A DNA stretch of 32,000 bases from Desulfoglaeba alkanexedens ALDC (GTDB lineage: Bacteria > Desulfobacterota > Syntrophobacteria > Syntrophobacterales > DSM-9756), in the NCBI RefSeq assembly GCF_005377625.1, contig NZ_CP040098.1, positions 2,499,279 to 2,531,278 of the forward strand, given 5' to 3'. Of the stretch, positions 3,953 to 31,612 are shown piece after piece. The notes beneath the pieces were generated by a model that was given only the letters and a program-made list of their open reading frames with translations, searched no databases and was not told the DNA's origin. The position numbers and the translations under genes were made by a program. Positions within the stretch are counted from its first letter, which is position 1, and each line of letters starts with the position of its first letter.

Positions 3953-4074
3953 TCCCCTCCCACAAGGGGAGGGGAAATAGGATTTGTACTCGTTCCCAAG
4001 CTCCGGCTTGGGAACGCCCTCAATCGAAGCTGGAGCGTCTCCACAGTTGTGTTCCCAAGCTGGAGCTTGGGAAC
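3953..4074. repeat. Repeat cluster inside the flgD-flgE spacer: GC hairpin plus two type-A 24-bp palindromes
   Basis: Hairpin TCCCCTCCC-acaag-GGGAGGGGA at 3953-3975. Type-A palindromes GTTCCCAAGCTCCGGCTTGGGAAC (3992-4015) and GTTCCCAAGCTGGAGCTTGGGAAC (4051-4074), with the associated GAAGCTGGAGCgTCTCC module at 4026-4042. Confidence 0.85.
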
Positions 4075-4108
4075 AAGAAGACAAAGGCAAGCCGGCTCCT
4101 ACAAAAAC

Positions 4109-4868: not shown

Positions 4869-6869
4869 TCATGCCACCAGACTGATGGTCTGCCCGTCAT
4901 TCAGGCGGCGGGCAGTCGCGGGCAGAACGCCCGCGGACAGGGGTTTCTTCTCTGAGGCCGTCCCGGTCCCCGAGCCTGGATCGACCTTGGCCTCGTCCGG
5001 GGAAAATCGGCCATGTTCCTTTTCCTTACGCACGTCCACGGAAAAGGACCCCAAGGTGATGCCCTGTTCGGCGAGCATCTGGCGAAGAAAACCGGCGTTC
5101 CGTGCCAGAAGCTCCCGAACCTGCTCGTGCTCCGCCGTGATCCACGTACTGACCTGATCGTTTCGGGTCTCCACGCGGAGCACCAGCTTCCCCAGGTGTT
5201 TCGGTTCCACTTCCAGCGTCAGCCGATGGCGGTTTTGTCGGATCATTTCCTGGAAGCGCTCCGCCACAACAGAAGGCCACGTGGAGCTGTAGAACGGCAC
5301 CCGGGATTCAATGCTCGGTTGATTGACTGCCGGGGAAGGACCGGCACCATCCAGCTTCAGCGAGACGATCTGCCCAATGGCCCGCTGGAAACCTGACCCG
5401 GACCGCAGGTTGTCGCCGCTCCCGGGGTTCTCTCCGCCGGAGGCGGGCTCCGCCGTCAAAGGACTCCCTTTGAGACCGGCCGTTTCAGCCTCGAAAAGCG
5501 AACCGGGGGAACCGTGTCCATGGGACGGATTCTCCTGTTTCCCCGTGTTTTCATTGCCACTGGAAGACGCGGAAGGCGCCGGTGGGGTCGGTGAATCCGA
5601 TTTTTCCAGCGGGGCCCGTTCTCCGGCTTGAGCCTGTCGCGACCCATGGGTGCGCCCCAGACCTTCCATTTCAGTCGGAGCCGCCGCGGGAAGCCCGTTC
5701 TTGGCCTGATCAGCCGCTTTCACGGAGGCGTGTTCGAGCTGTTCCGGGGCTGATGCACCGCTCGGCGGCTCCGTGTTCACGGTTTCAACGAAAGCGCGGG
5801 GATTCGGTTTCACGGGATTGGCTCCTTCGGTTTGCGGCTGCGATGGAGGCGCGCCTTCTGCGCTTTCGTTCAGCGCTGCGGAATCGCCGGAGTTCAAGGT
5901 GGATTCGGCGGAGGAAGTCCCCGGGCGTTGATCGGCATGCGCGGCCAAGACCTTCGGCGCCTTGAAGTCCCGGGGTCTGGGCGGATCGGTCAATGGTTCC
6001 GACGCGAGTCCCGGTTCCGATTCAGTCCATTCCACGGGGTCCTTTGCCGTGGGTTCTCCATCCTCGGGCGCCTTGGTATCCCCGAAAAGCGATTCATCGC
6101 TCTTGGAAAAATTCGGCATGGTGTTCCACGAACGCTTGGGATTCGATGGCCCGTTCGGCGAAGGAGTGTTCCCGCTCGAATCTTCCTCCGCCCTCCCATC
6201 CGTCCGTCCGCCGGCGTCGCCCTTAAACCTCATCGCGTCGTCGTTCTCCTCACTGAAGGCGGCGTCCCGGGACACCTTGTCCGCGATCCGTTCGAGCATT
6301 TCCTTGAATTCGGCCGCGCTGTAGGAGCCGGTTTTCCTGACGGCAACGTCTTCGGAGACCCCTTCGACCGGTCCGCCGTTGTAAAGAAGTGTCTCCAGTA
6401 GATTCGCCACGTGTTCAGCCGGGGCGGCGGGGACTTCCGTTATGGACTGTGCCGCCGGCTTTTCGGAAAGCGCCGCCATGAGGGCATCCAAACGGATATG
6501 TCGGTCACCGCCGGCCGCTTCAAGGCATGCCGCCCTGCATTCAGGGGAAAAGCCTAACTGCGCCAGGATCTCCTGAAGCCCCTGAACATCCCCCAGGGCC
6601 AATTCTTCTTCGACCTTCTTCCGTTTCAACCGGAGCGCCCCGGCCAGCCGCGCTCGATCTTCGAAGTGCTGGAAGAGAGAGAGTCGCTGCGGCGCGTTCA
6701 ACGTGTCATCGTTTCCCGGGGATGCCTTCGATTTTCCAAGAAGCAGGTTCTCCTGTGTCTTCATTTCCTTGGTGAAATCGGAATCCAGGATGGTTCTTCC
6801 GATCTTTCGATGTTCGGCCGCTGTGACGTTTTCCAGAAGTTGAGCGGAGTTGAGCAGGATCGCGACCAT
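4869..6869 (-). CDS. fliK: Flagellar hook-length control protein FliK
   Basis: The track ORF starts at a TTG (7022). ATG 6869 (MVAILLNSAQ) has a GAGGAAACC SD and lies downstream of the sigma-54 promoter, so I prefer it. The middle is long and rich in Pro/Ser/Gly/Ala/Glu. The C-terminus LTLEVEPKHLGKLVLRVETRNDQVSTWITAEHEQVRELLARNAGFLRQMLAEQGITLGSFSVDV is a FliK (Flg_hook) domain. The order fliK-flgD-flgE is canonical. Confidence 0.85.
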   Translation of the reverse strand: MVAILLNSAQLLENVTAAEHRKIGRTILDSDFTKEMKTQENLLLGKSKASPGNDDTLNAPQRLSLFQHFEDRARLAGALRLKRKKVEEELALGDVQGLQEILAQLGFSPECRAACLEAAGGDRHIRLDALMAALSEKPAAQSITEVPAAPAEHVANLLETLLYNGGPVEGVSEDVAVRKTGSYSAAEFKEMLERIADKVSRDAAFSEENDDAMRFKGDAGGRTDGRAEEDSSGNTPSPNGPSNPKRSWNTMPNFSKSDESLFGDTKAPEDGEPTAKDPVEWTESEPGLASEPLTDPPRPRDFKAPKVLAAHADQRPGTSSAESTLNSGDSAALNESAEGAPPSQPQTEGANPVKPNPRAFVETVNTEPPSGASAPEQLEHASVKAADQAKNGLPAAAPTEMEGLGRTHGSRQAQAGERAPLEKSDSPTPPAPSASSSGNENTGKQENPSHGHGSPGSLFEAETAGLKGSPLTAEPASGGENPGSGDNLRSGSGFQRAIGQIVSLKLDGAGPSPAVNQPSIESRVPFYSSTWPSVVAERFQEMIRQNRHRLTLEVEPKHLGKLVLRVETRNDQVSTWITAEHEQVRELLARNAGFLRQMLAEQGITLGSFSVDVRKEKEHGRFSPDEAKVDPGSGTGTASEKKPLSAGVLPATARRLNDGQTISLVA

Positions 6870-6917
6870 GGTTTCCTCGTCTTCGAGAAGGGGGCTTCGA
6901 TTTCGACCGGATGTAGA

Positions 6918-6932
6918 GCAACGGGAGTGCCA
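6918..6932 (-). promoter_or_regulatory. Sigma-54 -24/-12 promoter upstream of fliK
   Basis: The reverse complement reads tTGGCACtcccgTTGCTc, a perfect TGGCAC-N5-TTGC match, 49-63 nt upstream of the preferred fliK ATG (6869). Confidence 0.72.
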
Positions 6933-7065
6933 AATGAGCCGGCCTATAGAAGTGGTGTGAATACAGCATCTTATCCGTGGGGTCCGGGGGTTGGCCTTCA
7001 TGAACGGACATGAGGCGGGCAACTTTTGCCGCCTCGGGCTGCAATTGCTTCCCAGCCGCCTGGAT

Positions 7066-7388
7066 GCGCCGATGCCCCGCCCGCCCCCATCGGCCCGATG
7101 GCGGGCCTCCTACAGGTGGCCCGGTGTGGGAGCGGCGCCCGGTTGTAGGAACGGCGCCCCCGCCGCGATGAACCAACGGGCGGGCGCCTTGATGAAAAAC
7201 CGGGCCAATCCCCTGTAGGAGCCGGCTTGCCGGCGATGAGGGTCAATGCGGTATTGCCGGTTTTGCGAGTCGCGGGCAAACCCGCTCCTAGAATCCCTGC
7301 GCTCTCCACATTATTCCCAAGCTCCACCACCCACCTTGTTCCCAAGCTCCAGCTTGGGAACGGCCTGCCCGGGAAGCTCCAGCTTCCC
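7066..7388. repeat. REP/MITE-like array (type-B GC hairpin units plus type-A palindromes)
   Basis: Several TGTAGGAGC/TGTGGGAGC-[GC hairpin]-GCGAT units occur in both orientations. One complete composite lies at 7213-7290: CTGTAGGAGCCGGCTTGCCGGCGAT-gagggtcaatgcggtattgccggttttgcgagt-CGCGGGCAAACCCGCTCCTA. A type-A palindrome is at 7338-7361 and GGGAAGCTCCAGCTTCCC at 7371-7388. Confidence 0.85.
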
Positions 7389-7946
7389 GTACTCAACAGA
7401 AATTTGGAAACTGAAAAATTTGACCTGACCTCTCAATAATCTCCCGAACAGCCGCAGCAACTCGGGGTAACGTAGCCTGGATTAATGTGAGGAGGCCGGG
7501 CTGCAATGGAGAAGTTCCCAAAGTCATCATTTTGAATCAAGAGTTGGTTCGTGAGAAGCTGCGTCTGAAAAAGTATGATGACGTATGCCTCAGCGATTGA
7601 GGTCGTCTTGATGAGTTTGTCCATTTCATCATCTCTTTGTAGGGGGGAGAAAGGAATCACCCCCATGCAGAATCTGAGCCTTTCAGCCGAAAAACCGACG
7701 TGGATGTGCGCCTTCAAACAAGGGATCTGACCTATTCACGCTCCAGCCGGCATCTCTCAACGGGACGTTCAGACCCTCGATCACCCCAAACGGCCCACTG
7801 GACACTTCTGTGGAAAATGGGTGTCGCTGCCATCCGAGCGCACCAGACGTGGAGATCGTATTCACGACCTTGCTGTTCGGGTCTACCTTCCATTCGATGA
7901 AGCGGGAAGCTTGACCGACAAGGAAGAGCCAACCGTGCGGATCCTT

Positions 7947-8173: not shown

Positions 8174-9370
8174 CTAGAGGCCGAAAATGCTGACACTGCA
8201 CACGCTGAAGGAAGGGATCCCACCCAGGTTGTGGGTAAGGCCCAGGGTCGGGTTGGGGATCTGGCGCTCACCCGCCTTGTGCTGCAGCTGCTTGACCACT
8301 TCGTAGATCATCCGGATGCCGGAAGCCCCGATGGGGTGGCCGAAACACTTGAGTCCGCCGTCGCTCTGGCAGGGAATCTTTCCTTCCAGGTCGAAGAGAC
8401 CCTCATTAACGTCCAGGATGGCCCGGCCTCGCGGCGAAATCCCCAGGTCTTCGTAGGTTACGAGTTCGGTGATGGAAAAGCAGTCGTGGACTTCAAGGAT
8501 GCTCAATTCGTCCCGTGGGTTCTTGATGCCGGCTTCCGCATAGGCCCGTGCGGCCGCTTCCGTGGTGGTCTTCAAATAAGAGCCGTCCCAGGAGGTGGTG
8601 AGCATTTCTTCGCCGGATGTGGCGGCGATCTGGAGTGCTTTCACGAAGACCGGGTCCTTCCTCAAGCTGCGTGCGATTTCCGGCGTCGTAACGATCGCCG
8701 CCGCCGCCCCGTCGCTCACCCCGCAGCAGTCGAAGAGCCCCAGCGGCCACGCGATGATGGGAGCCTTGAGCACCTGTTCCGGGGTGACGGGCTTTCGAAG
8801 GTGCGCCCTGGGGTTCAGGGCCCCGGCGCGGTGGCTCTTGCTGGAAATCTTCGCGAGGGCCCGCTTTCCTTCTTCCGGGTCGATCCCGTACTTGGCGAAG
8901 TACCGGGTGGCAAGCAGCGCGAAGGCGCCCGGGGCGGTGAAGTTGGGAAGGGTGAAGTGCTGGAAGACCCCCATGGCCGTATCGAACCCGGGAAGCCCCC
9001 CATAGCCGGTGTCTTTGAGCTTTTCCACGCCGACGGCCAGGGCTATCCGGGAGGCGCCGGCCGCTACGGCGTAGCAGGCGCCGCGAAAGGCTTCCGTTCC
9101 GGTCGCGCAGAAGTTCTCCACCCGGGTGACCGGGAGGTTCGGCAGCTTCAGAGTCTGCGACAGGGGGATGCCGCTTTTTCCAACGTTCACTTCGTCGAAG
9201 CAGGTGCCGAGCCAGGCCGCGTCGATTTCGCGCCGTTCGATCCCTGCGTCTTCCATGGCTTCCATAAAGGCTTCCAGTATGAGGTCTTCAGCGGCGGCGT
9301 CCCAGCGTTCGCCGAAGCGGGTGCATCCCATGCCGATGATGGCGACTTTGTCCTTGATACCGATGGCCAT
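8174..9370 (-). CDS. Thiolase-fold acyl-CoA acyltransferase (SCP-x / DUF35-associated subtype)
   Basis: Start moved from 9424 to ATG 9370 (MAIGIKDKVAIIGMGCTRFGERW; AAGGAGGA SD). Nucleophile region NFCATGTEAFRGA. C-terminal GHPIGASGIRMIYE and HNLGG motifs fit the thiolase superfamily. Confidence 0.88.
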   Translation of the reverse strand: MAIGIKDKVAIIGMGCTRFGERWDAAAEDLILEAFMEAMEDAGIERREIDAAWLGTCFDEVNVGKSGIPLSQTLKLPNLPVTRVENFCATGTEAFRGACYAVAAGASRIALAVGVEKLKDTGYGGLPGFDTAMGVFQHFTLPNFTAPGAFALLATRYFAKYGIDPEEGKRALAKISSKSHRAGALNPRAHLRKPVTPEQVLKAPIIAWPLGLFDCCGVSDGAAAAIVTTPEIARSLRKDPVFVKALQIAATSGEEMLTTSWDGSYLKTTTEAAARAYAEAGIKNPRDELSILEVHDCFSITELVTYEDLGISPRGRAILDVNEGLFDLEGKIPCQSDGGLKCFGHPIGASGIRMIYEVVKQLQHKAGERQIPNPTLGLTHNLGGIPSFSVCSVSIFGL

Positions 9371-9386
9371 GGGCGATTCCTCCTTG

Positions 9387-10838
9387 TCATGAAACGGTGG
9401 GAACGGCTTTCCAGAAATAGACATGTATGCCGCGTTCTTTGTCTAGGTACTTGCGGCGGAAGGCAAGGCTCACCGCCATGCCCACCTGGAGGTCTTCCAG
9501 GGAGCAGTCGGTGAAATCGAGCATCATGCGGCCGCCCCCGTCGAAGTCGACGATGCCGTAGATTTGCGGCGGATCATAGGAAAAGGCCAGGTGATCGGCG
9601 GTGTAGCTGACGATGCGCCCGGTTCGAGAAGCGAACGGGTAAGGATCCATAGCATCCACGGCGTTACAATCGGGAACGGCGCAGACCCTCTGAGGCGGAT
9701 ACTGCGGCGTGCCGCAGTGGCGACATCGGCTGCCCACGAGCCCAAAGATGGTGCTCCTGTGCCGCCACATGACGGACCGGGGCGATTCCGCCTGAAATTC
9801 GCCGCGAAGACCGGTTTCCACCGGGAGGACGTTGCGGAAGGCGAGCGCCTTTTCATAGTTCGAAAGCAGCGCTTTTCGTTCGATCTGTCGGGAAAGCGGG
9901 AGCGCGGGGCGGCGATCGCGGATACGGTCCGTCGCCTGGAAATGGAGGACGTCGACGCCGCTTCCGAAGCCGACCACTAAAAGGTTGTCCCCGGGTTCGG
10001 CCTGTTCCAGAGCGTGCACCAGGAGCAGCAGCGGATGGGCGGAACCCGTATCGCCCACGGCGGCAGTGAGGGGGTCTACCACTCTTTGCGGATCGATGTT
10101 CAGCGCTTTGGCGATGGCGGCGTGTTCGCGCGGAAAGGGGCACGGGTATGCGATCTTTTGATAGGCTTGAGCGTCGGTGCCCTGCTTTTCGAAGAAGGCG
10201 GCAAGTGCCCGGGGGATGATCTTGAGGTAGCCTTCATCCCGGATCCAGCGTTCTTCCCAGGTTCGGCTGAAGCGCTGAGAGCAGTCCCGCATGCGGTCCG
10301 GGAAGTCAGCCGTGAGCGAGAGGGCGCCTCGAAAGACGGCCAGCAAGTCTTCGGTTCCCACCGCCACGGCGGCGCCCGCATCGGCCGCCACGTGTTCTTC
10401 GGCGCTCCCAGGCTTAGCGGTCCGCGCATCGGCCGCAGCGATGAGAGCGCCGCCGGAACCGCCGTTTTCGAGCGACCGGAGGGCTTGGATCAAGGCGGTG
10501 GTCCCCGAACGGAACGAGCCGGTGACGTCGGCGGTTTCGGTTTCGGGTGCCAGGTTCAGTGCGGCGGCGGCGATGGCGCTGTTCTGGCGTTCCAGGTATG
10601 GGAGTGTGGTGGAAGCGACAAAGAGTTGCGTGGGGCTCAAGTCTGGGGCGGTGGTGAGGGCGTTTCGGGCGGCGGCTACGGCGAGGGTGACCGCGTCCTC
10701 GTCCACGTTGGCCACGGCCTTTTCCCCGGCCGCCAGCCCCAGGGTCGCCAGGTTGATCCAGCTCATGGCCTGGGCGATCCGTTTTCGTTCCAGGCGATAG
10801 CGGGGGATGTGGGCGCCGTAAGCGGTAATGCCGATCAT
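9387..10838 (-). CDS. HMG-CoA-synthase-like (KAS-III fold) domain fused to a DUF35 zinc-ribbon/OB-fold domain
   Basis: Start moved from 10901 to ATG 10838 (MIGITAYGAHIPRYRL; AGGAGGTGA SD). The N-terminal ~350 aa resemble archaeal-type HMGCS. The C-terminal ~130 aa carry a CRHCG...CAVPDC zinc ribbon and an OB-fold-like segment (IYGIVDFDGGGRMMLDFTD...VGMAVSLAFRRKY), typical of DUF35. The stop lies 16 nt before the thiolase ATG. Confidence 0.85.
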   Translation of the reverse strand: MIGITAYGAHIPRYRLERKRIAQAMSWINLATLGLAAGEKAVANVDEDAVTLAVAAARNALTTAPDLSPTQLFVASTTLPYLERQNSAIAAAALNLAPETETADVTGSFRSGTTALIQALRSLENGGSGGALIAAADARTAKPGSAEEHVAADAGAAVAVGTEDLLAVFRGALSLTADFPDRMRDCSQRFSRTWEERWIRDEGYLKIIPRALAAFFEKQGTDAQAYQKIAYPCPFPREHAAIAKALNIDPQRVVDPLTAAVGDTGSAHPLLLLVHALEQAEPGDNLLVVGFGSGVDVLHFQATDRIRDRRPALPLSRQIERKALLSNYEKALAFRNVLPVETGLRGEFQAESPRSVMWRHRSTIFGLVGSRCRHCGTPQYPPQRVCAVPDCNAVDAMDPYPFASRTGRIVSYTADHLAFSYDPPQIYGIVDFDGGGRMMLDFTDCSLEDLQVGMAVSLAFRRKYLDKERGIHVYFWKAVPTVS

Positions 10839-10950
10839 GGTCACCTCCTGGACGACGGGTGTGTGGGGTGTGTGCCTAATTCTGACTGGGCGCTCATTCA
10901 TTTAACTTTGCTGCACCGGTTCTCGAGTGTCAAGCGCAAAATCGTGAGAG

Positions 10951-11390
10951 CCTGTCTAAGAATACCCTTGCCCCTTCCGGGATTGAGGGTCCGTTTCCCC
11001 TCGTTCCCAAACTCTGGCTTGGGAACGGCCTGCTTTCGATCAGTCCAATCGTTCCCAAGCTGGAGCTTGGGAACAAGGTGGATGGTGGAGCTTGGGAACA
11101 AGGTTGAAACCGGGCCGATCCCCGGTAGGAGCCGGCTTGCCGGCGATCAGGGTCAACGGGTTATTGCCGGTTTTACGGGTCGCGGTAGAGAGGACATGCG
11201 GGCGAGACGCCCGCGCTCCCAGGTCAACGCGGCATGGCCGGTTTTACGGGTCGCGGGGAAGCCCGCTCCTAGGGGGCCCCTTGTAGGAGCGGCGCCGTCG
11301 CCGCGATAAAATAAAAGTTGGAGCTTCTGCACGGTTGTGTTCCCAAGCTGGAGCTTGGGAACGAGGTGGATGGTGGAGCTTGGGAAGGAG
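10951..11390. repeat. Densest REP/MITE-like array (type C, type A x3 plus partials, nested type B)
   Basis: Type C at 10951-10996. Type-A palindromes at 11003-11026, 11051-11074 and 11339-11362, with partial arms near 11086-11099 and 11374-11386. A type-B composite runs from 11125 to about 11275 with an internal duplication of CCGGTTTTACGGGTCGCGG. TGTAGGAGCGGCGCCGTCGCCGCGAT lies at 11282-11307. Confidence 0.88.
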
Positions 11391-16923: not shown

Positions 16924-16945
16924 CGGATAGGATGCCGTCTCATGC

Positions 16946-16980
16946 CCTGTAGGAGCCGGCTTGCCGGCGATCAGGGTCAA
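16946..16980. repeat. Solo type-B left arm
   Basis: CCTGTAGGAGCCGGCTTGCCGGCGATCAGGGTCAA, located between the convergent cbiH and HDOD gene ends. Confidence 0.8.
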
Positions 16981-17014
16981 CACGGCTTTCATGAGTTTGT
17001 TTTTGGACAAGCCC

Positions 17015-18097: not shown

Positions 18098-18440
18098 GCT
18101 GTCTGAGAATACCCTTCACCCTTTGGGGATTGAGTGTCCGTTTTTTTCGCGTAGGGGCGGTTCGCGAACGGCACCTAAGGAGCGATTCGTGCCCTGTAGG
18201 GGCGCAGCGGCGCTGCGCCCCTACTCGCCGGCGATCAGGGTCGATGCGGCATGGCCGGTTTACGGGTCGCGGCGAGGGTGCCGCTCCTGCGGGGTCTGGG
18301 TCGCGGGCAAGCCCGCTCCTACCGATAACGGAACAGCGGGCCAGTTGCCTTCCACCTTATTCCCAAGCTCCAGATTGGGAACACAGCTATGCACAAACTC
18401 CAGATTGGGAACACAGCTGCGCAGAAGTTCCAGCTTCGAT
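18098..18440. repeat. REP/MITE-like array (type C, type B variants, type-A with tandem duplication)
   Basis: Type C at 18098-18143. A 13-bp-arm palindrome GTAGGGGCGCAGC-ggc-GCTGCGCCCCTAC lies at 18196-18224. A type-B right arm TCGCGGGCAAGCCCGCTCCTAC is near 18301-18322. A type-A variant ATTCCCAAGCTCCAGATTGGGAAC lies at 18359-18382, followed by a ~31-bp tandem duplicate and GAAGTTCCAGCTTC. Confidence 0.85.
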
Positions 18441-18582: not shown

Positions 18583-18945
18583 TCAAACCCAGTGCCCGCC
18601 GGTATCGGGGGCCTTGGTCGACTGCAGTTTCCCGGCCTTGTAGTTTTCAACGGCCTGCCGGACTGTGCCGGTTACGTTGACGAAAACGGGGATCCCCGCG
18701 GCGCGCAGGGTATCGAAGGCCCTGGGGCCGCAGTGGCCGGTAAGAACGGCGTCGGGTTTGAGACGCGCCACGGCGGCTGCGGCTTGAACCCCGGCGCCTT
18801 GAGCCGCCTGAAGGTTCTGCTGGTTGGGGATTACCTCGAAGTTCATCGTTTCCGTGTCCACAATGAGAAAACTGGGCGCCCGGCCGAAACGGGCGTCGAC
18901 CGGTGCTTCCAGGTTCTGACCGCTTGATGTTACGGCGACTTTCAT
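18583..18945 (-). CDS. NifB/NifX-family (FeMo-cofactor-binding-like, MTH1175-like) small protein
   Basis: Start ATG 18945 (MKVAVTSSGQNLEAPVDARFGRAPSFLIVD; AAGGATGA SD). FGRAPxFxIVD plus ...AVLTGHCGPRAFDTLRAAGIPVF... match the NifX/NifB-C domain pattern. Confidence 0.85.
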   Translation of the reverse strand: MKVAVTSSGQNLEAPVDARFGRAPSFLIVDTETMNFEVIPNQQNLQAAQGAGVQAAAAVARLKPDAVLTGHCGPRAFDTLRAAGIPVFVNVTGTVRQAVENYKAGKLQSTKAPDTGGHWV

Positions 18946-19053: not shown

Positions 19054-20307
19054 TCAGTGGTCGCAGACGTTCGGGCCGGTCTCGAGAGAGCCGTCAAGGT
19101 ATTTCTGAAGCAGGGCATCGGGATCCATCACCGGGGCTCCCGTCACCACTCGGATGCCTTGTTCCGCGAACTGGCTGATGGCCCGCTGCCCCATGCCGCC
19201 GGAGATGACCACCTTGATACCCTGGTTCGCCAGCCACCGGGGAAGAAGCCCCGGTTCGTGCGGCGGCGGCGTGACCCATTCCCTGCCGTCCACGCGGCCG
19301 TCTTTCACGCTGAGGATGGCGAACTGTTCGCAATGGCCGAAATGGTTGCACAGTACTCCTTGAGCCGTGGGGATGGCCACTTTTAAGGCGTTGCCGCCGG
19401 CCGCCGAAGCGACTTCCGGCTTTGCCGCAACGGTTTTGGCGGCGGTGGGGGCTTCCGCCGGCAGGCACCGTTCTTCGACGGCGTCGATGAGTCGATTCAC
19501 GGCCTGGATGAACGGCGTGTCGCTCGGACCTTCCATGAAGGGCCGTCCCGCGTCGCCGCCTTCGACGACCCGCGGATCGAAGGGAAGGCTTCCCAAGAGC
19601 GTCAGCTGCATCCGTTCCGCGGTTCTGCGGCCGCCGCCTCTACGGAACAGGTCGATTTCCTTGCCGCAATGAGGGCACACCAGGCCGTCCATGTTTTCCA
19701 CCAGTCCCAGGATGCTCATCTGGACCTTGCGACAGAAATTGATGGATTTTCGCACATCGGCAAGGGCCACTTCCTGGGGCGTCGTGACGATCACAGCGTG
19801 AGCGTCGGGTATGGTCTGAGCCACGCTGAGCGGTTCGTCGCCGGTTCCCGGCGGGCAGTCGATCACGAGATAATCCAACTTCCCCCAGTTCACTTCGGAA
19901 ATGAATTGTTTGATAACGCCATGTTTTATAGGCCCCCGCCAGATCACCGCCGAGTCCCGGTCTTCCAGCAGGTACTCGATGGAGACCACTTCCAGGTTTT
20001 CGTTGTAGCGGTGCGGGATGAGCCGCTTGTGTTCGTCCATGCCGAACATGCCGGTGATGCCGAGCATCCTCGGGGTACTGGGGCCATGGAGGTCCACGTC
20101 CATGAGGCCCACCTTGTATCCCCTGTTGGCGAGCCCCAAGGCGATGTATACTGCGACGCTGCTTTTCCCCACCCCGCCCTTGCCGCTCATAACCAACAGC
20201 TTGTGCTGGATCTGCTGAAGTTGACGGTGAAGCTGCTCCTCTTCCTGGGACGCGGCGTTTTTCTCGGCTCCGCCGTGGCCGCAGGAACCCTTCTCGCAAC
20301 TGCCCAT
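19054..20307 (-). CDS. Mrp/ApbC/NBP35-family P-loop ATPase fused to a C-terminal NifB/NifX-like domain
   Basis: Start ATG 20307 (MGSCEKGSCGHGG; GGAGAG SD), not 20985, because that extension crosses promoter and repeat DNA. Deviant Walker A LVMSGKGGVGKSS and the Mrp CxxC motif (CPHCG) are present. The C-terminus LKVAIPTAQGVLCNHFGHCEQFAILSV...VVISGGMGQRAISQFAEQGIRVV is a NifX-like domain. Confidence 0.88.
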   Translation of the reverse strand: MGSCEKGSCGHGGAEKNAASQEEEQLHRQLQQIQHKLLVMSGKGGVGKSSVAVYIALGLANRGYKVGLMDVDLHGPSTPRMLGITGMFGMDEHKRLIPHRYNENLEVVSIEYLLEDRDSAVIWRGPIKHGVIKQFISEVNWGKLDYLVIDCPPGTGDEPLSVAQTIPDAHAVIVTTPQEVALADVRKSINFCRKVQMSILGLVENMDGLVCPHCGKEIDLFRRGGGRRTAERMQLTLLGSLPFDPRVVEGGDAGRPFMEGPSDTPFIQAVNRLIDAVEERCLPAEAPTAAKTVAAKPEVASAAGGNALKVAIPTAQGVLCNHFGHCEQFAILSVKDGRVDGREWVTPPPHEPGLLPRWLANQGIKVVISGGMGQRAISQFAEQGIRVVTGAPVMDPDALLQKYLDGSLETGPNVCDH

Positions 20308-20408
20308 GGTGCTCTCTCCTTCCTCAATGTTGAAATCGAAAGGGAACGATGTTTCGGCTGCCTTCGGACGCCGTAACCACCGGCCAACCTGGCTCACGCT
20401 GCTTTCGA

Positions 20409-20423
20409 GCAAAGTCTGTGCCA
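20409..20423 (-). promoter_or_regulatory. Sigma-54 -24/-12 promoter upstream of the mrp-nifX-like unit
   Basis: The reverse complement reads tTGGCACagactTTGCTc, a perfect TGGCAC-N5-TTGC match, about 100 nt upstream of ATG 20307. Confidence 0.75.
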
Positions 20424-20499
20424 AGACTTGCCGGAAAGGATCTTTCAGGGGAACGCGGGAGCGGCGGACGGCCGGAGGCGGTACCCGACGTGAGGGAAT

Positions 20500-20516
20500 G
20501 GGTGCAGATCGCACCC
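20500..20516. promoter_or_regulatory. Putative enhancer (UAS) palindrome GGGTGC-N5-GCACCC
   Basis: GGGTGCagatcGCACCC(gg) begins 77 nt upstream of the -24 element. The same palindrome occurs 76 nt upstream of the second sigma-54 promoter, at 25013-25029. Confidence 0.55.
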
Positions 20517-20774
20517 GGCCGGTGTGCGGCCGGTTGCAGAACGCCTCCGGCTGGAAGTGCCGGCCCTGGATGTGCCGGCCCGAGGGGGATCGTTTCCAAT
20601 AACCCCCATGACCCCGTGGGGTCACAACGAAGCATGAAAATTCGGGATACGGGGCAGTGGGGTAGAGCTCAAAAAAATGGCACAATAACCAATCGACATT
20701 ATTGGTGGATCTTCTATTTTCATACAAACGTAAGACAGGGCCGGTGCCTTGACACGGCAAACCGAGGCGATCTT

Positions 20775-20853
20775 CTGTAGTAGCCGGCTTGCCGGCGATC
20801 AGGGCCGACGAGGCATTGCCGGTTTTACGGGTCGCGGGCAAGCCCACTCCTAC
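20775..20853. repeat. Complete type-B composite element
   Basis: CTGTAGTAGCCGGCTTGCCGGCGAT-cagggccgacgaggcattgccggttttacgggt-CGCGGGCAAGCCCACTCCTAC. Its right end overlaps the stop codon of the activator gene. Confidence 0.85.
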
Positions 20854-22277
20854 AAATGAAACGAATCGGATAAAGAAGATTCGGACCGCGAGGGTGAGGG
20901 ATCGGTCAGGCGGTAGCGTTTCATCTTGCGCCGGAGGGTGTTTTTGTCGATCCCCAACTCGCGGGCGGTGGCCATGCGTCGCCACGCGTTTCGTTCCAGG
21001 GCCTCCCAGATGGCTCGGCGTTCGACGTCTTTGAGGGTGGAGCCCGGTTCGGGAGGGAGTCGCTTGCTTTGCGCGCGCAGGTGTTCCGGGAGGTGTTCGG
21101 GTCGGATGAGGCCGTCCGAACAGAGGATGAAGGCGTGTTCGATGGCGTTTTCCAATTCGCGGATGTTTCCCGGCCAGTCGTGGTGCATGAAGACGGCGAG
21201 GGTTTCCCGGCTGAGCCCGGCGACGGTCTTGTCTTGGAGGCGGTTGAAGCGATCGATGAAATGCTGAGTGAGCAGCGGGATGTCTTCGCGGCGTTCACTG
21301 AGGGGCGGAAGCCACAGCTTGACCACGTTGACGCGGTAGTAGAGGTCTTTTCGAAAGATGCCCCGTTCGACCAATTCTTCCAGGTCTTTGTTGGATGCGG
21401 CGATGATCCGGACATTGGCCTTGACGCTTTTCGACGACCCGAGCGGCTCGTAGACACGTTCTTCGATAACGCGAAGGAGCCTCACCTGGAGGGCCGGCGA
21501 GACGTCTCCGATTTCATCGAGGAGAAGAGTTCCGCCTTCCGCCAGGGCGAAACGTCCTTGCCGGGCCTTCTTCGCGTCGGTGAAGGCTCCGGCCACGTGC
21601 CCGAAAAGTTCCGATTCCAAGAGGGTGTCGGGAAGGGCCCCGCAGTTTACGGCGACGAAGGGGCCGCGGGCCCTCGGGCTCATGGAATGCAGCGTACGTG
21701 CGAGCACCTCCTTGCCCGTGCCGCTTTCGCCCTGGATGAGCACGGTGCTTTCGCTGCGGGCGATTTCCGGGAGGATAGCGAAAAGCTTCTGCATGGCGGG
21801 AGACTTGGAGACCATGTCCCCGAAGCTGTAGCGGCGGTGGAGCTCCCGGCGGAGTCTTTCCACCAGGCTGAGATCCCGGAAGGTTTCCACGCCGCCGATC
21901 ACCCGGCCTTCGGCGTCTTTGAGGAGCGCGGTGCTCACGCTGATGGGGATTTCTTTGCCTTCGGCGGTTAGGATGGCGATGGGTTTGTCGACGATGGGCT
22001 TTCCGGTCTCCAGGGTGTGGCGGAGCGCACAGGCCGTCTCGCAGATGTTGGCCCGGAAGACTTCGCAGCAGGGCCGCCCGATGGCTTCATCCTTCGGTAT
22101 GCCGGTGATGATTTCCGCGGCTCGGTTGAACCACGTGATCCGGAAATCGCGGTCCACGGTGAAGACACCGTCGGCGATGCTGTTCAGGATGATTTCCGTC
22201 GATCCGGCGCAGGAAAGGGGCGTCGCGGGGGGTTCCCGGTTTTCGGCGGGCTTCGATGAAGAGATCTTGGAGTCCAT
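20850..22277 (-). CDS. Sigma-54-dependent transcriptional activator (PAS - AAA+ - Fis-type HTH)
   Basis: 475 aa with an N-terminal PAS domain ([30 protein letters not shown]). The AAA+ sigma-54 interaction module has Walker [24 protein letters not shown] and RIIAASN. The C-terminal HTH reads [22 protein letters not shown]. Confidence 0.92.
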
Positions 22278-22322: not shown

Positions 22323-23246
22323 TCACCGATCGAGCATGGAGGCCGGAATCGATGTCGTGGGGTTGGCTTCGGTTTCATCCGTCGATCGCGGAATGTCCGC
22401 TTCGAGGATTTCCCAGAAACGACGCACGGCATCAGCCACAGGATTCTTATCGTATTCGACGACGGTGAGGCCGTCAACCTGGGCACGGGTGACAACGGGG
22501 TCGAAGGGGATGTGCCCGAGAAAGGGGATGCCTTTCCGAGCGCAGTTTTCTTCGATTTCACGGGCGGCGTCCCAGAAGAGGTCGGCCTTGTTCACGCAGG
22601 CGAAGGCGGGGATTCCGAAATGAGCCGCCAGCTCCGCTGCGCGCGCCAGATCGTGGATCCCGGAAACCGTCGGTTCGCTCACGATGAGCACCGCGGACGC
22701 GCCTCCGATGGAGGCGATCACCGGGCAGCCGATTCCCGGCGGGCCGTCGGTCAAGATCCATTGGAGATTGCGTTCTTCCGCCAGCCGCCTGGCTTCCTTG
22801 CGAACCAGGCTCACCAGCTTTCCCGAGTTTTCTTCCGCTATGCCGAGCCGGGCGTGGATCAGCGGCCCGAAGCGCGTCTCCGAAACGAACCACTCTCCGC
22901 AGTGGTTTTCAATGAAATCAATGGCGCCGGCGGGGCAGAAGTAATAGCAGACGCCGCAGCCTTCGCAGAGGAACTCGTTCACGACGAGGTGCTCATCGAT
23001 GGCTTCAAACCGGCACCACTTCGCGCATTCACCGCATTCGATGCAGCGGTCCGCCTGGATCACGGCCTTCCGGCCGGAAACGAAATCGTGCCGCTGAACG
23101 ATGTTCGGAGCCAGCAGGAGGTGAAGGTCCGCCGCGTCCACATCGGCGTCACAGAGAACCTTGTTTTGGGCCACGGCGGCCAGAGCCCCCACCAGGCTGG
23201 TCTTGCCGGTACCGCCCTTTCCGCTGATTACAACGAGTTCTCGCAT
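22323..23246 (-). CDS. MinD/ParA/CooC-type P-loop ATPase with inserted 2x[4Fe-4S]-ferredoxin motifs (paralog B)
   Basis: Start ATG 23246 (MRELVVISGKGGTGKTS; AAGGA SD). The track extension to 23906 merely overlaps the upstream gene. Ferredoxin motifs are CIECGECAKWC and CEGCGVCYYFCP. The MinD-like core has LTDGPPGIGCPV. Confidence 0.88.
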   Translation of the reverse strand: MRELVVISGKGGTGKTSLVGALAAVAQNKVLCDADVDAADLHLLLAPNIVQRHDFVSGRKAVIQADRCIECGECAKWCRFEAIDEHLVVNEFLCEGCGVCYYFCPAGAIDFIENHCGEWFVSETRFGPLIHARLGIAEENSGKLVSLVRKEARRLAEERNLQWILTDGPPGIGCPVIASIGGASAVLIVSEPTVSGIHDLARAAELAAHFGIPAFACVNKADLFWDAAREIEENCARKGIPFLGHIPFDPVVTRAQVDGLTVVEYDKNPVADAVRRFWEILEADIPRSTDETEANPTTSIPASMLDR

Positions 23247-24103
23247 GTCCTGTCCTTTTCCGAACTTGCCTCGTGCAGGTCGAGGATGGAATCCAAGAGT
23301 TGCCGCATCATGCGGCGCCATTGCGGAAGTCGCTCCACCAGCAGTTCGCCGCGGGCGTATGCTTCGGCCGCTTTTCGGTCGAAGGGGATTTCCAGGAGCA
23401 CCGGAAGCCCTTCCCCGGCTGCATACTGCCTGACCCGGCCGTTGCCCATGTCCGAACGGTTGATCACCAGTCCCGCGGGCAGGTTCATCTTTCGAACGAC
23501 CCCAACGGCCAGTTCCAGGTCGTTCAGGCCGAAAGGCGTTGGTTCCGTTACCAGGAGTGCGAAATCGGTCCCGTAGAGCGACGTCACCACCGGGCAGGAT
23601 GTGCCCGGTGGCGCGTCGACGATGGTGAGGTCTTCGGTGACGGTGATGGATCGGATGCGGCGGATGAGCGGAGGCGCCATGGCCTCTCCGATCCTCAGCC
23701 GGCCGTGCGCGAACCGAACAGGCCCGCGCCGGCCCATCTCGAGGGTTCCTACGATCCGACGGCCCGGCTTTACGGCGTCTTCCGGGCAGACCATGAAGCA
23801 GCCGCCGCAGCCGTGGCAGAGTTCGGGGAAGGTGAGCACCGTTTCCGGTAGCACGGCGATGGCGTTGAATTGGCAGATTTCCTGGCACCTCCCGCACAAG
23901 TTGCAACGGTCCATGTCGATTTCCGGCACCTCGATGGTGACCTCTTCGCTGTGATCCAGCACCGGTTTCAAAAACAAGTGCGCGTTCGGCTCTTCCACAT
24001 CGCAGTCGAACAAAGCGACAGGCCGATCCGCGGCCACCGCAAGATTTACGGCCAGGGTGGTCTTTCCGGTTCCTCCCTTGCCGCTCGCCACAGAGATGAT
24101 CAT
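23228..24103 (-). CDS. MinD/ParA/CooC-type P-loop ATPase with inserted 2x[4Fe-4S]-ferredoxin motifs (paralog A)
   Basis: 291 aa starting MIISVASGKGGTGKTTLAVNLA. Ferredoxin motifs are CNLCGRCQEICQ and CHGCGGCFMVCP, and the core has DAPPGTSCPV. GAGGAGGGAGGA SD. The 3' end overlaps paralog B by 19 nt. Confidence 0.88.
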   Translation of the reverse strand: MIISVASGKGGTGKTTLAVNLAVAADRPVALFDCDVEEPNAHLFLKPVLDHSEEVTIEVPEIDMDRCNLCGRCQEICQFNAIAVLPETVLTFPELCHGCGGCFMVCPEDAVKPGRRIVGTLEMGRRGPVRFAHGRLRIGEAMAPPLIRRIRSITVTEDLTIVDAPPGTSCPVVTSLYGTDFALLVTEPTPFGLNDLELAVGVVRKMNLPAGLVINRSDMGNGRVRQYAAGEGLPVLLEIPFDRKAAEAYARGELLVERLPQWRRMMRQLLDSILDLHEASSEKDRTCENSL

Positions 24104-24193: not shown

Positions 24194-24853
24194 TCACTTG
24201 CTTACCATGGGTTTGCCGCATTCGGGGCAGGACATCTGGGTGCACGGAATGCCCAGCTGATGTTCCACCTCCCTGCCGCAGGAGGGACACACGCAAAGCC
24301 CCGAGCGATTGGCGCCTTGACGGCCGGGGCCCGTCCCCGTTCGGCGACAACCTCCTCCCTGACCGCGTCCTCCTCCTTGACCACGTCCTCCCCCTCCGCC
24401 TCCGCCTTGACCGCGTCCTCCGCCTTGACCACGTCCTCCGCCTTGACCTGGCATGACCGCTCCTTTCTGAGCGCCGAGCGCCCTCTGCCCCGACTCCCAA
24501 CAGGCCCGGTACCGGCGAAATCCCCGGCATCCCGGCAGTTGAAAGCGGGGTTGATCCAAATGTCCCCGCCGGTAGGCTTGCAGCACCTCGTCTACATCCC
24601 CAGCAACGCCGAAGACGACCGTGAGACCCAGGCCTTCCGCGTAATGGAGAAGATCCGGGCTGAGGCTCCCGCAGATGAGCTTGGTGACGCCGCGGTCCCG
24701 CAGCTGCCGAACCCGCTGAAACGGATCCGAGGAGTTCATCAACAATTCTTGGGGCGGGGCGCTGGTTTCAGTGCCGTCCGTGACCAGCAGGAGGCGTGAA
24801 CACCAATTGAGAACCGGAGCCACGCGACCGCGCAAAACGGGTATCGCCAGCAT
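24194..24853 (-). CDS. NifB/NifX-like domain fused in frame to a Gly/Arg-rich repeat and a C-terminal Cys-rich zinc ribbon (DUF5320-like tail)
   Basis: Start ATG 24853 ([14 protein letters not shown]; GAAGGAGGTG SD). The N-domain ...[40 protein letters not shown] is NifX-like. It is followed by (RGQGGG)n and then [30 protein letters not shown]. Confidence 0.75.
24351..24451 (-). repeat. 18-bp tandem coding repeat (five units, one expanded) encoding RGQGGG
   Basis: The plus-strand unit is CCTCC(G/T)CC(T/C)TGACC(G/A)CGT. Units lie at 24351-24368, 24369-24386, 24387-24416 (expanded), 24417-24434 and 24435-24451. Confidence 0.85.
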
Positions 24854-24922
24854 GCGGCCACCTCCTTCCCCCGGCGCATGGGATTGGAAAAGCCTCGATC
24901 GTCGTTGTCGAGACCTCATGGG

Positions 24923-25012: not shown

Positions 25013-25029
25013 GGGTGCTAAACGCACCC
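25013..25029. promoter_or_regulatory. Putative enhancer (UAS) palindrome GGGTGC-N5-GCACCC (second copy)
   Basis: GGGTGCtaaacGCACCC(gg) begins 76 nt upstream of the -24 element at 24932-24937. It matches the 20500-20516 site in both half-sites, in the spacer length and in the trailing GG. Confidence 0.55.
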
Positions 25030-28337: not shown

Positions 28338-28592
28338 CGGGTAGGGCGACGAAGTTTTGCGAATCGCGGGCAAGCCCGCTCCTACCGAAAAAGGTAAACC
28401 CGGGCGGCCCCTCTCCGCTTTGTTCCCAAGCTCCAGCTTGGGAACACAAGCGTGCAGAAGCTCCAGCTTCGATATTCACCGCATCGCGATCAGCGTTGAT
28501 CTATCGAAGACCATGCAATCGTTGAAATCCTTTGCAGCGAGGCGAAGCTGGAGCTTCGCGGGCAGGGCGTTCCCAAGCCAGAGCTTGGGAAC
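28338..28592. repeat. REP/MITE-like array (type-B right arm, two type-A palindromes)
   Basis: ...TCGCGGGCAAGCCCGCTCCTAC. Type-A copies at 28422-28445 and 28569-28592. GAAGCTCCAGCTTC at 28457-28470 and GAAGCTGGAGCTTC near 28545-28558. Confidence 0.85.
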
Positions 28593-28781
28593 GAGGGGAA
28601 AAGCGCCCCGATTGCGAAGCAGGACGGGATATGGTATGCGTGCTCGCAATGGATCAGGGGTTTCGGCCGGGGATTCGTTCTGCAATGGTTGAGCGGATGG
28701 ATACGGCGGGAATTCGTGGAAATCTATCCCGGTCCTCCGGATCGATGAGTTGCAGAGGCACGACGGGAAGAAGGGAAGCAG

Positions 28782-31096: not shown

Positions 31097-31266
31097 CGTA
31101 CGGCTCGGCCTGAGAAGGCATTTTGTGGACGAAGCGTTGAGCACTGTGCCCGCTACGACCGTGCCGATAGTTTACTGCAGCGAACTGGAAATGGAGTATG
31201 TAGCGGGGTTTCGACGGAAGAGGAGCTTCTCCGAAAACTCAGATGGATGCAGATCTTTTGCTTCTT

Positions 31267-31612
31267 GTTCCCAAGCTCCAGCTTGGGAACACAACTGTGC
31301 AGAAGCTCCAGCTTCGGTGAGGCCGTTCCCAAGTCAGGCTTGGGAACGAGCGGAAACGAGGGGGAAGACCACTTCGAGATCCTGGCGAGCTCCCTAGAAA
31401 GACAGTGCGTTTCAGCTGTAGCAGGAGGGAAGCTGGAGCTTCCCGGGTAGGGCGTTCCCAAGCCAGAGCTTGGGAACGAGGGGAAGGAGCGACTCATGCC
31501 CTGTAGGAGCCGGCTTGCCGGCGATCCCGATCGCGGCGAGGGCGCCGCTCCCACAGATGGTTTACAACGCGGCGAAGGCGCCGCTCCCACGGGGATCTGG
31601 ATCGCGGCCTTT
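31267..31612. repeat. REP/MITE-like array (three type-A palindromes, type-B units)
   Basis: Type-A copies at 31267-31290, 31325-31347 and 31453-31476. GAAGCTCCAGCTTC at 31302-31315 and GGGAAGCTGGAGCTTCCC at 31427-31444. CCTGTAGGAGCCGGCTTGCCGGCGAT at 31499-31524, followed by two GGCG(A/C)GGGCGCCGCTCCCAC units. Confidence 0.85.

Follow-up and report, generated by a model that had tools for sequence, protein, structure and literature searches.

The orp genes of Desulfovibrio vulgaris (DvH), DVU2103-DVU2109, are served by two sigma-54 promoters and by the enhancer-binding protein (EBP) OrpR, DVU2106, whose regulon is confined to the two orp operons (PMC8359166). The OrpR operator is a 17-bp imperfect palindrome, GGGCGYRTTTTGCGCCC, defined by electrophoretic mobility shift assay (EMSA) and chromatin immunoprecipitation sequencing (ChIP-seq) (PMC8359166). 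The dyad centres lie at -131 and -88, and IHF is needed between the upstream activating sequence (UAS) and the promoter, the functional IHF sites being 67-78% similar to the consensus (PMC3897727, PMC8359166). The two operons are divergent, and orpR has a sigma-70 promoter of its own that is overlapped by an OrpR site, which results in negative autoregulation (PMC3897727, PMC8359166). The PAS domain of DvH OrpR holds a redox-sensitive [4Fe-4S] cluster that requires C52, C61 and C65, with D/E54 nearby (PMC8359166), and the GAFTDA variant of the GAFTGA loop is listed for DVU2106 (Kazakov 2015). Here, we describe two GGGTGC-N5-GCACCC dyads, each ahead of a sigma-54 promoter, in a stretch of 32,000 nucleotides from Desulfoglaeba alkanexedens ALDC (contig NZ_CP040098.1; hereafter the window). 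We consider it very probable that both are UASs of the D. alkanexedens OrpR orthologue, sites of a known kind whose presence was largely to be expected.

Two further EBPs offer points of comparison. At the enteric glnAp2 promoter, NtrC is bound via a Fis-type helix-turn-helix (HTH) to paired dyads that lie about three helical turns apart and about 100-140 nt upstream of the -24/-12 promoter, and these dyads serve oligomer assembly and DNA looping. The window differs from this system in the sequence of the site, in its targets, which are unrelated, and in the input, which is a phosphorylated receiver domain in NtrC and an Fe-S PAS domain here. The UAS of NifA, TGT-N10-ACA, is a dyad located about 100 nt or more upstream of the sigma-54 promoters of metallocluster-related genes; NifA is redox- or oxygen-sensitive, has a GAF sensory domain and usually works with IHF. 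A dyad ahead of sigma-54 metallocluster promoters and, by homology with DvH OrpR, a redox-sensitive activator are common to the NifA system and the window, whereas the motif, the spacing and the sensory domain are different.

Paired dyads and sigma-54 promoters in the window

P1 and P2 (Table 1) are both intergenic minus-strand promoters and share one direction of transcription. P1 stands upstream of an operon whose last gene encodes the activator, and P2 is found just downstream of the activator gene, ahead of mrpORP, which encodes an Mrp fusion protein. An earlier note on this DNA had placed a perfect minus-strand sigma-54 promoter about 100 nt before the ATG of the Mrp fusion, and P2 bears this out: it matches TGGCAC-N5-TTGC with 0 mismatches, its GG and GC are 10 nt apart, and the GC of the -12 element lies about 101 nt from the ATG (20307). 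The second promoter of that note is also present, but it is not perfect, as it reads GTGC at -12 (1 mismatch). From its -12 element to the ATG (24853) there are 69 nt, and P1 is the sole -24/-12-like site between its dyad and this ATG. The dyad is separated from the T of TGGCAC by 77 nt at P2 (20500 to 20423) and by 76 nt at P1 (25013 to 24937), in agreement with the earlier coordinates and distances, and the spacers between dyad and promoter measure 76 and 75 nt, respectively. Transcription is predicted to start near 24911 at P1 and near 20397 at P2, with 5' untranslated regions of about 58 and 90 nt, and relative to these starts the dyad centres lie at about -110 and -111. The activator gene had been described as flanked by the two promoters; it does lie between them, but the operons are co-directional and not divergent.

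The exact dyad GGGTGC-N5-GCACCC occurs twice in the 32 kb, and still twice when 1 mismatch is allowed (0.20 expected, from shuffles). Under a first-order Markov model, 0.0056 exact copies are expected per 32 kb, with a probability of 1.6e-5 for at least two, and about 0.6 exact copies would be expected by chance in 3.37 Mb. The composite dyad-N60-90-TGGCAC is present 2 times in the window and 0 times in 100 dinucleotide shuffles. Since the spacers of P1 and P2 are only 31-37% identical, the two regions are not recent duplicates of each other, and a recent duplication of one promoter region into the other was ruled out.

Perfect TGGCAC-N5-TTGC matches also occur on the minus strand at 2427-2441 and 6918-6932, upstream of motA-like and fliK-like genes. 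These are presumably flagellar sigma-54 promoters, and they suggest that sigma-54 is in use in D. alkanexedens. The orp dyad was found at neither of these two flagellar promoters of the window; it is therefore not a general accompaniment of sigma-54 promoters.

The orp genes and their activator

Judged by their sequence, the genes at the two promoters belong to an orp cluster. Against the NCBIfam MrpORP equivalog NF041136 (cut-off 450 bits), the Mrp fusion reaches 533 bits, and its translation contains the CxHFGHCE and C-terminal CDH motifs, which have been reported for Orp9 (PMC6345978). The two MinD/ferredoxin ATPases agree in domain content with Orp3 and Orp4 as described (PMC6345978). The product of the gene at the orp5 position combines a weakly NifX-like N-terminus (Nitro_FeMo-Co E = 0.003, below the cut-off) with a Gly/Arg-rich repeat linker and a Cys-rich C-terminus; an 18-nt tandem repeat at 24333-24461 encodes this (GGGRGQ)n linker, which leads from the NifX-like part to the Cys-rich end. 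In the second operon mrpORP is followed by the ORP-like gene, and an equivalent of orp7 was not identified in the window cluster, unlike in DvH. All of the orp-cluster genes are on the minus strand, and their relatives in L001-L004 and L011 (see below) are co-directional in the same way.

The activator, which has 100% identity to a D. alkanexedens protein, comprises PAS_9 (residues 36-137), Sigma54_activat (156-321; 226 bits) and HTH_8 (414-455) domains, with GAFTDA at residue 230. Its PAS domain carries C70-x8-C79-x3-C83 together with E72 (Glu at +2), a spacing identical to that of C52/C61/C65 and D/E54 in DvH OrpR, and a [4Fe-4S] cluster is predicted in this domain by homology. The Cys motif is present in 17/17 of the OrpR-like proteins extracted from loci L001-L018.

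The likeness to DvH extends from the activator, with its PAS Cys triad and GAFTDA loop, to the sites and their targets. In both systems orpR is flanked by two sigma-54 promoters, and ahead of each promoter stands a 17-bp dyad of 6-N5-6 layout, with GGG...CCC outer triplets and a T-rich spacer; the dyads are about 90-130 nt upstream of the start, and the targets are MrpORP, an ORP-like protein and two MinD/ferredoxin ATPases. Compared with GGGCGYRTTTTGCGCCC, the window dyads are identical at 10 of the 12 arm positions and, over the whole site, at 14/17 (P1) and 13/17 (P2) positions.

Table 1. Positions of promoters, dyads, genes and repeats in the window, and of the paralogue sites in L015 and L017 (numbered within those loci)
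Feature	Position	Strand	Sequence	Remark
Rubredoxin-like open reading frame	25267-25079	minus		50 nt before P1 dyad
Tentative weak distal dyad of P1	25046..25062	minus	GGAAACATGAAACACCC	33 bp upstream of primary dyad
Primary OrpR-type dyad of P1 (candidate UAS)	25013..25029		GGGTGCgtttaGCACCC = GGGTGC-gttta-GCACCC	in transcription direction
Sigma-54 promoter P1	24923..24937	minus	TGGCACgatatGTGC = TGGCAC-gatat-GTGC	1 mismatch to TGGCAC-N5-TTGC
First gene of upstream operon, orp5 position, 219 aa	24194..24853	minus		syntenic in L001-L004, L011
MinD/ParA-type ATPase, two 4Fe-4S ferredoxin motifs, Orp4-like by position	23228..24103	minus		domain search
Second MinD/ParA-type ATPase with ferredoxin motifs, Orp3-like by position	22323..23270	minus		domains and synteny
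orpR orthologue, sigma-54 EBP	20850..22277	minus		PAS, AAA+, HTH_8
Candidate weak distal dyad of P2	20532..20548	minus	GGAGGCGTTCTGCAACC = GGAGGC-gttct-GCAACC	32 bp upstream of primary dyad
Primary OrpR-type dyad of P2 (candidate UAS)	20500..20516		GGGTGCgatctGCACCC = GGGTGC-gatct-GCACCC	in transcription direction
Sigma-54 promoter P2	20409..20423	minus	TGGCACagactTTGC = TGGCAC-agact-TTGC(T)	0 mismatches to TGGCAC-N5-TTGC
mrpORP (orp9), Mrp/NBP35 ATPase-Nitro_FeMo-Co fusion	19054..20307	minus		NF041136
Single-domain Nitro_FeMo-Co protein, ORP/Orp8-like	18583..18945	minus		77 bits; syntenic in relatives
Palindromic intergenic repeat	3988-4081, 7334-7368, 10999-11081, 11335-11369, 18355-18389, 28418-28599, 31263-31484		GTTCCCAAGCTCCAGCTTGGGAAC	
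Second REP-like family	7197-7293, 11107-11203, 16942-16985, 18206-18249, 20759-20855, 31496-31539		GTAGGAGCCGGCTTGCCGGCGATCAGGGTC...GTCGCGGGCAAGCCCGCTCCTAC	
Tandem dyads, paralogue locus L015	9361-9410			
Sigma-54 promoter, paralogue locus L015	9508-9522			
Tandem dyads, paralogue locus L017	9324-9370			
Sigma-54 promoter, paralogue locus L017	9469-9483			

Conservation of the dyads

A genome scan with the window EBP gave 80 loci, among them the relatives labelled L001-L018. Five of these are syntenic with the window and have the same co-directional gene order: three from Desulfacinum (L001-L003), one from Desulfosoma (L004) and one from a Syntrophobacteraceae metagenome-assembled genome (MAG; L011), with OrpR proteins that are 71-77% identical. 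A GGGTKC-N5-GMACCC dyad is found at both promoter regions in the five loci, in degenerate form in L004; the pairs are GGGTGCATCTTGAACCC and GGGTGCGTTCCGAACCC in L001, GGGTGCATTTTGAACCC and GGGTGCATTTTGCCCCC in L002, GGGTGCGTTTTGAACCC and GGGTTCAACCTGAACCC in L003, and GGGTTCAAAACGCACCC and GGGTGCATTGTGAACCC in L011. At P2, the window dyad aligns with dyads in 5/5 syntenic relatives, and the conserved islands of the alignment are the dyad and GGCAY-N5-TTG. Upstream of the first orp gene, L001-L003 and L011 have dyads homologous to the P1 dyad; here the positions were taken from coordinates, as MAFFT misaligned the window P1 region, whose gap from dyad to promoter departs by about 58 nt from that of the relatives. 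In the consensus, GGGTGC-ATTTT-GMACCC, the RTTTT spacer is oriented to transcription as it is in DvH. With a position weight matrix, the orp sites score 22-28, compared with a maximum of 17.2 in 0.78 Mb of loci around unrelated EBPs. As for the promoters, the -12 element is TTGT or TTGA (GG-N10-GT/GA) at P2 of L001-L004 and P1 of L011, while P2 of D. alkanexedens has the consensus TTGC.

Metagenomes were scanned with the pattern GGGTGC-N5-GMACCC-N65-95-YGGCAY-N5-TTG. Among the matches listed, an Orp or EBP homologue was present in just 4 of 80 loci, so that the pattern is too unspecific for testing regulon specificity and L120 alone is useful. This locus is 96% identical; it keeps the arms of the P2 dyad and the 76-nt gap, and its dyad spacer differs by one change. 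Matches L094, L150 and L152 hold a gene for outer-membrane efflux together with an EBP of the response-regulator type, which has a different HTH.

The earlier note had proposed that the palindrome is an enhancer site for the activator, and the orp cluster, the OrpR features, the likeness to the DvH operator and the conserved dyad all speak for this. Two supporting details of that proposal hold in part. The equal geometry is true of the window, at 76 and 77 nt, but it is lineage-specific, as the dyad centres of the relatives lie at -119 to -131 (P2) and -168 to -186 (P1). Likewise, the trailing GG after the palindrome is common to L120 but is not seen in more distant relatives.

A second, weaker dyad often accompanies the first. 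Within 70 bp on either side of the P2 site, the best extra dyad is found at -32 in the window, -33 in L001-L003 and +33 in L011, and in L120 the distal P2 dyad is conserved except for one base. Dyad pairs 31-33 bp apart occur also in L010, at P1 of L004, in L009 and in L013, and by our own count a second dyad lies 31 bp away, about three turns, in the published sequence of DvH orp1 (PMC3897727 Fig. S1). In the background, scores like these have a per-position frequency of about 1e-3 at most. The P1 candidate in the window resembles the distal-type sites GGGAAC-N5-GCACCC of the relatives, with a low score. By analogy with NtrC, a spacing of about three turns between two sites would suit an EBP oligomer that assembles along one face of the DNA. 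The Desulfacinum loci are peculiar in that their distal P2 dyad, GGGAACAAAATGCACCC (9312-9328 in L001, with equivalents in L002 and L003), falls inside the last orpR codons (…GNKMHP…), so that the sequence encoding the C-terminal tail of OrpR overlaps its own predicted binding site. Just upstream of the distal P2 dyad of the window, at 20557-20580 on the minus strand, the sequence repeats directly every 15 nt (GCCGGCAC ... GCCGGCAC); the core of this repeat is conserved in L120, and the repeat could provide further weak EBP or sigma-54-like contacts.

The aligned sites also bear on the reading of the palindrome as an RNA hairpin, that is, as a terminator or processing signal for the rubredoxin-like gene (at P1) or for orpR (at P2). 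The dyads do lie downstream of co-directional genes. At P1 the rubredoxin-like open reading frame ends 50 nt before the dyad; at P2 the preceding gene is orpR, whose stop codon in Desulfacinum is 10-30 nt away. The arms could pair into a GC-rich stem of 6 bp with 5 nt in the loop. Neither copy, however, is followed by a U-run or flagged by a terminator scan, and an Rfam scan of the window gave no match. In 7/13 homologous sites pair 5-13 is unpaired, and the covariation score was reached by 383/500 shuffles; the variation obeys half-site rules (GGGTKC) rather than base-pairing. We therefore rejected this reading, which has a very small probability, for want of a U-run, of covariation and of any terminator call.

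A third account would make the palindrome a fragment of a dispersed intergenic repeat family, or a chance repetition, with no regulatory role. The window is crowded with REP-like repeats: the palindromic intergenic repeat GTTCCCAAGCTCCAGCTTGGGAAC has 11 copies in the 32 kb, commonly joined to other repeat units in composite arrays, and a second REP-like family takes the form GTAGGAGCCGGCTTGCCGGCGATCAGGGTC...GTCGCGGGCAAGCCCGCTCCTAC. One copy of the latter (20759-20855) comes after the orpR stop and before the candidate UAS of P2. Moreover, some repeated 6-N5-6 dyad arises in 7% of simulated windows, so that repetition by itself is weak evidence. Neither dyad, however, overlaps the dispersed repeat families of the window, no repeat copy contains the dyad and no further dyad copies exist in the window, which led us to reject membership of a REP-like family. 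The copy at 20759-20855 looks like a recent insertion because it is missing in L120, which has the dyad all the same. The pairing of dyad and sigma-54 promoter 76/77 nt apart, which never arose in shuffles, and the conservation of the dyad in relatives whose surrounding sequence has diverged leave this account with next to no probability, and we retain the reading of the dyads as OrpR sites.

The OrpR-like family and the proposed regulation

Beyond the syntenic relatives, L016 (KSB1) has an OrpR-like EBP of 58% identity, and directly after its gene the dyad GGTTTCATATTGCACCC stands 86 nt before a perfect sigma-54 promoter, TGGCACaaaccTTGC. A NifX-like gene and a class-V aminotransferase gene (NifS/IscS-like) follow; dyad, promoter and these genes lie at 9361-9478 and 9574-11126. 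This locus reads as the same switch in another phylum, with Fe-S assembly genes as its predicted targets. A second L016 dyad at 33 bp was dropped from consideration, as the extra GGGTGT half-site is 23 bp from the dyad. The paralogues in L015 (an Omnitrophota MAG) and L017 (a Desulfovibrionaceae MAG) are 56-58% identical and have the same Cys motif and GAFTDA. Their tandem dyads, 33 bp apart in L015 (TCTTGC-N5-ACAAGA and TCGTGC-N5-GCAAGA) and 30 bp apart in L017, share a TGC-N5-GCA core and, as in the window, follow the EBP gene directly and precede a sigma-54 promoter. They differ from the window in the outer triplets (TCKTGC...GCAAGA), in the recognition helix (DPSTLWRK versus DKNTLRRK) and in the targets, which are not orp genes but a membrane redox-complex operon (CCG/4Fe-4S, NarI-like, NrfD, cytochrome c3). 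The outer triplets thus change along with the recognition helix, as is expected of cognate EBP sites.

These comparisons bear on the suggestion that the dyad is the operator of some other factor, for example a metal, redox or Fe-S repressor, which controls both orp promoters while OrpR acts elsewhere. A GC-rich dyad of 6-N5-6 layout would suit dimers of many kinds, and a position near -110 would be compatible with a repressor or co-regulator. Against this, the layout, 10/12 arm bases and a similar T-rich spacer match the DvH OrpR operator determined by EMSA and ChIP-seq; the dyad accompanies orpR across genera and into KSB1; and in the paralogues the dyad sequence and the EBP recognition helix change together. 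In the gene-order comparison of the relatives, no other DNA-binding protein gene was conserved in the cluster. We regard such a factor as improbable.

Several points weigh against the assignment of the dyads to OrpR. Orthology to DvH OrpR is drawn from published motifs, domain content and synteny rather than from direct alignment. The arms read GGGTGC/GCACCC in the window and GGGCGY/GCGCCC in DvH, one symmetric change (T4/A14 versus C4/G14). The operons are co-directional in the window, with orpR last in the first operon, but divergent in DvH. The IHF consensus WATCAANNNNTTR, with up to 2 mismatches, was not found in either window spacer, although functional DvH sites are themselves 67-78% similar to it. 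Finally, the distal dyads of the window are weak, with a symmetric score of 3.2 at P2 and a negative one at P1.

With OrpR taken as the cognate activator, we infer its binding, DNA looping, redox control and the co-transcription of orpR from P1 as follows. OrpR dimers would bind each dyad through the C-terminal Fis-type HTH, and the weaker dyad about three helical turns upstream probably aids assembly of the AAA+ hexamer. The DNA from about -110 to the promoter would loop so that the hexamer contacts the sigma-54 RNA polymerase closed complex at -24/-12, and ATP hydrolysis through the GAFTDA loop would then open the promoter. P1 would drive the orp5-like gene, the two MinD/ferredoxin ATPases and probably orpR, while P2 would drive mrpORP and the ORP-like gene. 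If redox control is as in the homologous D. vulgaris system, activation is expected at low redox potential and should stop on oxidation, with DNA binding persisting.

The start of orpR 45 nt after the orp3-like gene and the co-directional layout suggest co-transcription from P1 and hence positive feedback. Apart from the P1 dyad, no further dyads occur within 2.7 kb upstream of orpR; unlike in DvH, no dyad covers an orpR promoter in the window, and negative autoregulation of the DvH type is not apparent. The divergent layout and orpR autoregulation are an organizational trait of DvH and not family-defining. On the minus strand at 22449-22477, inside the 3' end of the orp3-like gene and about 170 nt before the orpR ATG, there is a sigma-70-like sequence, TTGACG-17-TACGAT; this consensus match is a possible independent orpR promoter, an alternative to co-transcription from P1.

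Much more tentatively, the OrpR family may be a widespread, multi-phylum group of [4Fe-4S]-PAS EBPs with a shared tandem 6-N5-6 grammar: a TGC/GCA or CGC/GCG core, sites about three helical turns apart beside the activator gene, and outer triplets that covary with the recognition helix. The Syntrophobacterales would have been rewired, with orpR expressed from its own target promoter in a positive feedback as opposed to the negative loop of D. vulgaris, and with both dyads converged on -110, possibly in replacement of IHF-assisted looping. Other lineages would use the same switch for Fe-S assembly genes of the NifS/NifU type or for membrane redox complexes.

With the dyads read as OrpR sites, the experimentally defined operator-activator pair of OrpR and the orp operons extends from Desulfovibrio to an alkane-degrading sulfate reducer of the Syntrophobacterales, and both promoters can be annotated with confidence, with redox-gated expression of the orange-protein/MrpORP metallocluster machinery expected by homology. 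The T4/A14 versus C4/G14 variant and the co-variation of helix and operator in the paralogues form a set for mapping the recognition code of EBP Fis-type HTHs, and the co-directional layout suggests a feedback logic unlike that of the model organism. None of these findings overturns current understanding.

A different arrangement is seen in L006 (Desulfoferrobacter suflitae), where NifX-like and NifU_N scaffold genes (6618-7504) lie directly upstream of an orpR orthologue of 73% identity, with no MinD or Mrp genes nearby. L005, L007, L010 and L014 are similar, and in L010 dyads 33 bp apart precede the locus. Among the metagenome matches, an identical stretch, GGGTGCATGGTGAACCC-N85-TGGCACCGCTTTTG, recurs without an orp or EBP homologue in many contigs (L084, L086, L088, L100, L108, L114, L119, L126, L136, L137, L143, L145 and others), human-gut assemblies included, and probably stems from conserved coding sequence of some common organism.

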